Of a DNA stretch of 64,000 bases, positions 45,301-48,300 are shown in pieces; position 1 is the first letter of the stretch, and each line of letters begins with the position of its first letter. The stretch is taken from the NCBI RefSeq assembly GCF_988243305.1, contig NZ_OZ547136.1, one strand, 5' to 3'. The position numbers are program-made.

Positions 45301-48300
45301 ACTGCGTTTATCCGGATGATGTCGCTGTTGCTGACAGTGGTAATACGTTGACGGGGCAATATGCAGTTCGCTGCATAGCGGTCCGACCCCGTACTGCTCA
45401 CGCAGCTTATCCAGCAGTGGCATCATTTTTTCCAGAGGCGGTCGAACTCCGCCTTCGCAAAATAAGCGGAAGCCTGGCGAAGGATATCGTTACTGCGGCG
45501 CAGTTCACGATTTTCACGTTCCAGCTCTTTCAGACGCTGACGTTCAGCGGTGGTGAGCCCTCCATCACCGCCCCCGGTATCCCGCTCATGCTGGCGAACC
45601 CAGACACGCAGAGTCTCCGGCGTACAGCCAATCTTTGGAGCAATGGAACAAATTGTCGCCCATTGTGAGTCATATTCGCTCTGACTTTCCAGAACCATAC
45701 GGACTGCCCGTTGACGGACTTCGGGGGAAAAACGAGTATTTTTAGTCATCCTGTTTACCTCTTTCTCAGGAAGTTTAGTCTCCAGGATTCCCGGGGCGGT
45801 TCACAGTCAGAAATCGAAACGTACTCTCAACAGTTCGCTTAGGCATGGAAGTTTTGCGGCATTCTGGCTACACAATAACAAGGGAAGACTTACTCGTGGC
45901 TGCAACCCTACTAGCTCAAAATTTATTCACACATGGTTACGCTTTGGGGAAATTATGAGGGGATCTCTCAGGACCAGGTATCACCTAGTGTTAATTCACT
46001 TTTAAAAGGAATAATTACTCGTTGTAACGTACTACTCACATGTGCAATTTTACCCGGTGAATTACCTGAACGACTCCATGTAGAATAATCACGAAAACGC
46101 CACGCCCCTAAATTTAAACCTGAACGGAGATTTAAATAATAACTATCAGACGCATAGTCTCCACGATCACTGTTGCCAGAAAAATCATAATTAATAAGAA
46201 TGGCCGGGATACCATTATCCCATTCCTCAGGTGGAATATAACCACGGGCTTCATGCTTTAATATTGCCTGCGGAAAGGTCAGTTTGAGTCGTTGCGCATC
46301 CAGTTCAGGAGTGTATTGAACTTCTGCGAACCATATACGTAAATCGAGACAATTATTTCCCTCTGCTTGCGCCTGTTCCGGCAATGCACTTTTGTTAATT
46401 CCTAAAGTAACTAACTCATCGAGCGAAAAACAGGGGATCAACTGATTCTGCTCATCAGCTTTGAAAGTAACCTTACGTGATGTCAAAGGCGAATCATTGA
46501 CCCATATTTCAACCTCATAACTACCAGGTAGATATGTCATCCCTTTCTCAAAACGAGATAAATCAGCAACAGCTTCTGTATCACCCGACAGGAATGCAGG
46601 GTTAAAGCGCATACCCGCCACTGAACACGCAGGCAAAAGTGTCAGTAGAAGCAGCATACACCACCTCATCTGCTTCTGCCTTGCCATCCTGTGTTCGAGT
46701 TTTCTGAGCTTTAGGTTCATATCCCTGACCTGAGTTGCTTTAACGTTTTAATCTTCCAGGTTTATTGCATCGTTCCCTTTTGCCTGGCCGTTGTGGCACC
46801 GTAATCATTGATAGTTTGATAAGTAATTTCACCGGCTAACGTCACTGGTGAAGACACTGTTACGTCACTTTTCGGTGGAACAAACGCATTAGGTAATTTT
46901 GCCCCTTGCACCCTGATTCCAGTCACCGTCAGATAATAGGGAGAAGGGTTAATGACTCTCAGCTGTTTACCTTCGTATTTAAATCGCAGCATATCCCGTG
47001 CTTTACCAGCTTGAACGGGTAAATTAGTCGGACGGTAAAATAATTTAATTCTGTTTTGTAACGCCAGTTGTAACGTGTTTTTCTGGGTATTCTTCTCATC
47101 CGTTGGCGGAATCGCTTTCACATTCATCCAGAATAATGTTTCGCGATCAGTCGGTAACTGTGATTTACCAATAAACATTATCCTCAATGAGGCTTCTTTT
47201 CGCGTTGGTAACATAAATAAAGGAGGCGTAACCACAAAATCCTGACTTTTTTTACTGCTTTGATTGTCATCAATCCATGACTGGATTAAATAGCTGGTGT
47301 TAGCCCCACCATTCTGTACACTTAGCGTAATTTGCTGACTGTCAGATGGATAAACCAGACGCGTAGAACCAAGACCGAAGCCACCCGCAGCAATAGCATT
47401 GATAGATATGGCGGATAGTAAAAATAGAGCACCGGCCCTTATGATATATTGGGTCTTCAGCAAAGAATTAATGTTTCTATTCGAAAAACATTTATTTTTT
47501 GAAATCCATCTCATACTGCATCCTTGTAGATGAAATTAATTGTAATTACTGATGCATGTCTATTTATTACAAATAAACATGTAATATTAATTTCAGGTTA
47601 CAAGTAACTGTAACCTGAAATTATCTTGCTGTAATTATTCGTACAGCACGACGAAACTTGCCGTTGATTTCACCAGACCTGGTGCAACGGTACTACCGTT
47701 CTGAGCATAGCCCGCGGTAAATGCCGCAGTAAAATCATGAGTGGCTGCATCGCCAGGAATCACGTAGGCTGCTGAAGAACTACTCCCCTGGGGAGTTTGT
47801 GTGTTCAGCTTAATCAGGCCATCAGTTGTCGTGTTTTTAGAATAAATACGAATCCCTACACCCGTAGCTCCCGCTTCGCCAGTACCATCAGCATCAGCAG
47901 CTCCTTCCACTTCATTGGCAAGCGTCTGGTTGGCACCGTCTGCTACGCCAGTAAAACGAAATTCAATATTTTGACTGTCCGTATTGCTACAATCAGTCAA
48001 TTTAATGTTGAAGTCAGTCTGGTTACTGGCACCCGTTGCTTCGGTATCAATGCCCGTGAAAGCGTTAGAAGGTACGACTGGCAGTACCACTTCAATCTGT
48101 TTCGATTCTGTAGCAACCTTACACGTCGCTTTAACCACACGACCAGTAAAGCGGATGTTTCCGCCCATCGCATCGGTGTTGCTATCCATATCGGTGAGTT
48201 TTGGATAATCAACGGTGCTCCAGTCTGTATCCGCACCACCAAATTGTGATGCATCGCCTGGCGCAGCGGTTACCGCAGTTGACATCAGCATACCTGATGC

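Follow-up and report, generated by a model that had tools for sequence, protein, structure and literature searches.

Among the closest described systems, IS911, IS150 and IS3 share a common logic in which reading frames in 0 and -1 phases are connected by a low-frequency -1 shift and an RNA stimulator lies on the 3' side; the slippery motif is A_AAA_AAG in IS911 and IS150, and A_AAG with a pseudoknot in IS3. Another stimulator, the ALIL pseudoknot, was reportedly described for IS3411 by Mazauric and colleagues in 2008. According to Atkins et al. (2016, PMC5009743), IS3411 shares the ALIL arrangement with no fewer than 27 further IS elements. Within the IS3 family, A-rich motifs are found most often, A_AAA_AAG and A_AAA_AAA together making up 72% of heptamers (Sharma et al., 2014, PMC4066793). 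In the same study, for which all motifs were measured in E. coli, tetramers combined with a pseudoknot stimulator rank A_AAG >> U_UUC > U_UUU > C_CCY > A_AAA, A_AAA thus coming last among the six shift-prone tetramers; a tetramer that lacks a stimulator hardly shifts at all, and stimulatory structures begin 4–10 nt past the motif. Neither IS3411 nor IS629 is mentioned in its supplements. The locus described here carries a recoding cassette that differs from the classic A-run sites: conservation and geometry, from which site usage is judged, make it likely that U_UUU together with an ALIL pseudoknot is the main -1 site of an intact IS629, and that an A-run at the end of orfA is at most a weak, clade-specific site.

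The window, that is, the whole stretch of 64,000 nucleotides that was analysed, contains the following element and boundaries.

44494..45803, minus strand: complete IS629 of 1310 bp (IS3 family), 100% identical in DNA over its whole length to many chromosomal and plasmid copies of E. coli in RefSeq
45779..45803, minus strand: left terminal inverted repeat TGAACCGCCCCGGGAATCCTGGAGA, with 23 of its 25 positions shared with the right repeat
44494..44518, minus strand: right terminal inverted repeat, 25 bp
45804..45806, no strand assigned, with the other copy at 44491-44493: 3-bp target-site duplication CTG, with which the IS629 flanks end and start

The element ends read TGAACC...GGTTCA, i.e. 5'-TG...CA-3' as expected of the IS3 family, and the empty site, uninterrupted IS10-type sequence with a single CTG, is found with 100% identity over 317 nt in other genomes. 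With its 0/-1 ORF pair, a helix-turn-helix OrfA, a DDE OrfB, TG...CA repeats and a 3-bp duplication, the copy has the characters of the IS3 family, and the family assignment and ORF phasing proposed by an earlier sequence-only reading are borne out, the element being IS629. Like IS629 and its synonyms or isoforms IS1203 and IS3411, it has 1310 bp, 25-bp imperfect repeats, a 3-bp duplication, an orfA of 108 aa and a -1-phase orfB of 296 aa; no difference from IS629 is detectable in the window copy, which is simply one more copy of a known, intact element. Copies of the IS1203 type are ∼96% identical to it and keep both the U-run and the A-run discussed below. A match to IS629 was found in 4263 of 5426 complete E. 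coli genomes, and identical copies in RefSeq are labelled "IS3 family transposase, programmed frameshift" and carry an "AL1L pseudoknot" feature.

The coding features and the region in which the two frames overlap are as follows.

45423..45749, minus strand: orfA, 108 aa, HTH_Tnp_1 DNA-binding protein (PF01527, E = 7e-13)
44536..45426, minus strand: orfB, 296 aa from ATG ATG, with HTH_21 and rve (DDE) domains (PF13276, PF00665)
45423..45489, minus strand: zone of 67 nt with both frames open, where slipping by -1 leads to full-length OrfAB; a -1-frame stop TAA lies at 45492-45490
45421..45434, minus strand: 14-mer with an A6 run (45431-45426), the orfA stop TGA (45425-45423) and the orfB ATG ATG (45426-45421); a stop/start overlap and possibly a weak second -1 site

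As the sequence-only reading described, orfA ends in TGG AAA AAA TGA and orfB begins with ATG ATG in the -1 frame relative to it, both within minus strand 45434..45421, which reads TGGAAAAAATGATG. This 14-mer is unique in the window (one match against 0.10 expected, allowing up to one mismatch), and A6 runs number 70 against 59.7 expected, such a run being unremarkable by itself. That reading overlooked that the -1 frame already opens 22 codons upstream, at 45489, and that the open zone contains, besides the A-run at 45431-45426, another in-phase slippery candidate, T_TTT_G at 45462-45458. A plus-strand antisense ORF of 106 aa (45348..45668) falls within IS coding sequence and was regarded as spurious.

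The catalytic codons of OrfB are D136 at 45021-45019, D195 at 44844-44842 and E231 at 44736-44734. The DDE triad and K238 are intact, with a D-to-E spacing of 36, and alignment of OrfB with 26 representatives of 40–63% identity shows D136 and D195 to be invariant and E231 nearly invariant across the 27 homologues. The suggestion that the element is still translationally competent, for which the DDE motif had been named as a check, is upheld, and judged from its sequence the copy looks fully competent for transposition. IS629 is among the chief causes of rearrangement in E. coli O157 and Shigella, and the apparent competence of this copy is relevant to the genome instability of its host strain.

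The upstream candidate is associated with an extended RNA structure.

45458..45462, minus strand: slippery motif U_UUU_G, in phase (TAT TTT GCG), conserved; most likely the main -1 frameshift site
45352..45468, minus strand: ALIL pseudoknot, Rfam RF01497, 120.2 bits against a gathering score of 50, E = 4e-32
45437..45453, minus strand: stem-loop 1 (GGCGG AGUUCGA CCGCC), dG -7.5 kcal/mol, z = -2.2
45352..45391, minus strand: stem-loop 2 with an internal loop, dG -16.4 kcal/mol, z = -2.3

The RF01497 match spans the full 117-position model, whose start corresponds to CGCUUAUUUUGC. U_UUU (45462..45459) occupies model positions 7–10, and a 5-nt spacer separates it from stem 1, which begins at position 16. 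Both stems fold better than shuffled sequence, and bases 45386-45381 in the internal loop of stem-loop 2 pair with 45447-45442 in the apical loop of stem 1 to form the pseudoknot helix. IS629 thus shares with the ALIL family the full-length match, the placement of stem 1 at 5 nt past the U-run, and the 6-bp contact between apical and internal loops; relative to the consensus loop pair GCUCGA/UCGAGC, its pair GUUCGA/UCGGAC has one compensatory change from C-G to U-A and one change from U-A to U.G. By the published rules for tetramers and stimulators (Sharma et al., 2014, PMC4066793), U_UUU combined with ALIL qualifies as a programmed site. The sequence-only reading had proposed an OrfAB fusion by programmed -1 frameshifting, which is supported by the Rfam match and by the RefSeq label; the mechanism as such is already known, and nothing about it is new here.

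By its layout, the cassette presents ribosomes translating orfA with the in-phase U_UUU and, 5 nt later, with ALIL stem-loop 1, the 6-nt apical loop of which pairs with the internal loop of stem-loop 2, some 55 nt downstream. From established knowledge of -1 frameshifting and of the ALIL family, the structure would be expected to pause the ribosome with tRNA-Phe on UUU, and a small fraction would slip back by one base and continue in the frame of orfB, yielding a 404-aa OrfAB transposase with helix-turn-helix, leucine zipper and DDE core, while most ribosomes would stop at TGA and release OrfA. Any slip at the A-run might occur with A_AAA in the A site, or in the P site while the stop codon awaits release factor, and would produce an OrfAB isoform differing at 10 residues (98–107). 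The bases of the 14-mer also make up an ATGA stop/start overlap, which could allow synthesis of OrfB by itself.

Comparison with diverged relatives distinguishes the two candidates. A first protein search returned near-identical copies only, which were used just for tallying annotation conventions, and diverged relatives were obtained by means of a 50%-identity representative library; 80 loci from diverse bacteria, with OrfB identities of 56–66%, were taken. ALIL was found in 78 of them, the remaining two being 5'-truncated, a count that is to be read with the caveat that recognition of the diverged loci relied in part on the Rfam model and is thereby biased towards its structure. Conservation was counted in 67 unique ungapped sequences, comprising 66 relatives and the window. 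All 67 have an in-phase T_TTY at model positions 7–10 (TTTC, n = 36; TTTT, n = 31), the spacer and stem 1 are almost invariant, and 57 sequences have the orfA stop at model position 44, nine at position 41. Directly ahead of the slip codon, all 66 relatives have TAT or TTT, a codon whose wobble T completes the U-run, whereas elsewhere in those elements (median GC 60%) only 31% of Tyr/Phe codons end in T; the nominal probability of this enrichment is ∼1e-36, which is overstated since the sequences are related, although the direction is unambiguous. In the slip codon itself, T and C are freely exchanged at the wobble position among the relatives, as expected given that U_UUU and U_UUC are both shift-prone.

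The structure is conserved together with the motif. Across the 66 sequences, 94.7% of cells are paired in the Rfam structure including the helix between apical and internal loops, compared with 29–43% when partners are slid. By helix the values are 98% (stem 1), 96% and 89%, and 99.5% for the pseudoknot helix (model positions 22–27 with 83–88). Eight pairs show double changes, and none of 500 shuffles reaches any of the observed values. The window contributes a compensatory change of its own, U23-A87 in place of C-G in the pseudoknot helix, indicating that the loop/internal-loop contact is maintained in IS629. The conserved motif of this group is therefore a U_UUY tetramer rather than an A-run, in which it differs from IS911, IS150 and IS3, and its stimulator is an ALIL pseudoknot instead of the hairpin or H-type pseudoknot of the classic A-run sites.

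The A-run compares poorly with those classic sites. It reads G_AAA_AAA, and thus offers the tetramer A_AAA but no X_XXZ_ZZN heptamer. It lies ∼31 nt downstream of the U-run with stem 1 between them, starts 5 nt past the end of stem 1 in the linker between stems 1 and 2, and is separated from the beginning of stem 2 by 35 nt. Stem 1 would be of no help to it, since it is already unwound by the time the A-run is decoded, and stem 2 begins too far beyond to act on a ribosome at that point. The 35 nt following the A-run fold at -8.6 kcal/mol (z = -0.41), with 57 of 200 shuffles folding as well, and a local hairpin as stimulator of the A-run in IS629 was rejected on this basis. A tetramer rather than a heptamer, and without a stimulator in IS629, the A-run is a poor site. 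The sequence-only reading had pointed to a search for structure downstream of its slippery run; nothing significant follows the A-run, and the structure that does exist, the ALIL pseudoknot, lies 3' of the U-run. An A-run longer than three bases near the orfA stop is seen in the window only and in none of the 66 diverged relatives.

Within the closer relatives the picture is different, and it is here that the strongest alternative arises, namely that U-run and A-run are both used and that two OrfAB isoforms, differing at residues 98–107, both contribute to transposition. TGGAAAAAAT is kept in IS1203 (∼96% identity), in a 95% variant, and in plasmid elements of Citrobacter, E. coli and Edwardsiella (72–77% overall identity), its conservation in the enterobacterial IS629-like clade extending down to about 72–79% nucleotide identity, while the bases beside the A-run vary in the clade (CTC, CAC or CTG before it, TGA or TAA after it) and one lineage reads AAAAAG, a better motif. 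The notion that the motif would recur at the homologous position therefore holds for close IS629/IS1203 relatives and fails in the wider family. Such conservation amid varying neighbours favours a role in shifting, but no base of the A-run can change without altering the protein in one or other of the two frames (frame 0 encodes W-K-K, frame -1 L-E-K-M), and this dual coding may suffice to explain the conservation within the clade; the absence of a stimulator after the A-run in IS629 also counts against the use of both sites. Chen and Hu reportedly described, in 2006, two functional -1 products of IS629 arising from the T-run and the A-run near the 3' end of orfA. Such a result fits the sequence, which has exactly these two in-phase sites, and would mean that the A-run probably has some activity. 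Shifting is reportedly enhanced when a stop codon directly follows a slippery run (the "shifty stops" attributed to Weiss and colleagues, 1987), which would also favour use of both sites. On balance a contribution of both is a serious contender, with the evidence almost evenly divided and leaning slightly against it.

An extension of this alternative is that the enterobacterial IS629 clade gained a second recoding site, the A-run by the orfA stop, downstream of stem 1, and that the ratio of the two isoforms tunes transposition; this is put forward tentatively, as rather less likely to be true than false. If true, it would turn a single published case, that of IS629, into a conserved, clade-wide two-site design. 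Two relatives of IS629 (72–77% identity; L084:541-575 and L085:1072-1106) have a significant hairpin directly after the A6 run and a TAA stop, with dG of -10.8 and -10.1 kcal/mol, z of -2.5 and -3.5, respectively, and a compensatory A-U versus G-C difference between them. The hairpin is missing in IS629; in those relatives it could be a stimulator for an A-run site. In a scan of viral contigs for the stem-1 core, many hits were unrelated genes coding for "AEIDR", and only hits with T_TTY were used.

A further alternative is that the 14-mer is mainly a stop/start overlap (ATGA), at which termination at TGA would be followed by reinitiation at ATG to give OrfB alone. In 50 of the 67 unique sequences the orfA stop shares bases with a start codon, be it ATG, GTG or TTG, and a weak GGA lies 4–7 nt upstream of the orfB ATGs in the window. 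A passage in PMC5771124 that cites Chen & Hu reports that IS629 OrfB lowers transposition frequency. The overlap is not universal, however, as CTGA is found in 14 of the 67 and no start codon in three, and the first ATG is ATA in three of the relatives with 72–79% identity. Coupled synthesis of OrfB is thus a possible but doubtful main function of these bases.

It is very unlikely that OrfAB arises mainly or solely by programmed -1 shifting on the A6 run next to the orfA stop, which the sequence-only reading took for the classic IS3-family slippery site. The run is in phase (AAA AAA TGA) within the overlap, belongs to the type of motif most frequent in the family (72% of heptamers, PMC4066793), is kept in IS629, IS1203 and the relatives of 72–79% identity, and is the point at which RefSeq WP_085959878.1 is joined. 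Against this, the G that precedes it leaves no true heptamer, and among the shift-prone tetramers, which depend on a stimulator, A_AAA ranks lowest (PMC4066793). In addition, the RNA past it folds no better than shuffled sequence, its position 3' of stem 1 puts it out of reach of the ALIL pseudoknot, and it is missing from all 66 diverged relatives that retain U-run and pseudoknot. The assignment of the slippery site to the A-run is accordingly not sustained.

Finally, RNA polymerase slippage on A6, adding an A to some transcripts and fusing orfA to orfB without ribosomal frameshifting, would by sequence logic give exactly the ...WKK-MM... fusion, but efficient transcriptional slippage in E. 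coli needs about 8–9 bases or more and the A-run is longer in no relative, which makes this source of OrfAB extremely improbable. Homopolymer runs are known slippage sites, with A7 and U7 mentioned (PMC4066793).

Deposited fusion proteins are mostly consistent with the preferred assignment of the main shift to U_UUU and ALIL, although their junctions are a matter of annotation rules and conventions, not of experiment. The junction is at the U-run in 107 of 109 proteins and at the A-run in two, and the exact U-run fusion is present on 379 contigs against one for the exact A-run fusion, the deposited name of which is "IS3-like element IS629 family transposase". Three public junctions exist for the same DNA, AYF-CEGG in 51 proteins, AYF-GEGG in 50 and LWKK-MM in two (P0001-P0120). 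In the AYF-G form the G that follows the T-run is read twice, which matches no tRNA slip; of the U-run forms only AYF-C corresponds to a slip of tRNA-Phe. The present analysis matters mainly for annotation, in that OrfAB of IS629-type elements should be joined at the U-run before ALIL and not at the A-run of the stop/start overlap.

The surroundings of the element consist of a nested insertion. IS629 lies in an IS10/ISVsa5-type element at window positions 43330-45971 (1329 bp without IS629 and its duplication), which has its own intact 9-bp duplication GACCAGGTA in the flanks at 43321-43329 and 45972-45980. The nested IS629/IS10 junction was found in none of the 5,426 complete E. coli genomes. 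IS629 is inserted in the 3' end of the IS10 transposase gene, such that the ORF at 43437-44654 runs into IS629 and the native C-terminus is lost; to judge by this arrangement, IS10 has probably been disabled by the insertion. RNA-OUT (RF00240, 99.5 bits), the antisense regulator of the IS10 transposase, is present at 43375-43444 on the minus strand, as expected for IS10. Elsewhere in the window, the sRNA ES036 (CssrF) has an Rfam match at 38073-38115 on the minus strand (43.6 bits against a threshold of 37.6). The IS10 element in turn sits within a fimbrial usher gene. A fimbrial chaperone-like ORF of 250 aa (46762-47514, minus strand) lies upstream of the interrupted N-terminal usher fragment (45968-46720, minus strand), and because of this arrangement a chaperone-usher fimbrial operon has probably been knocked out by the insertions.
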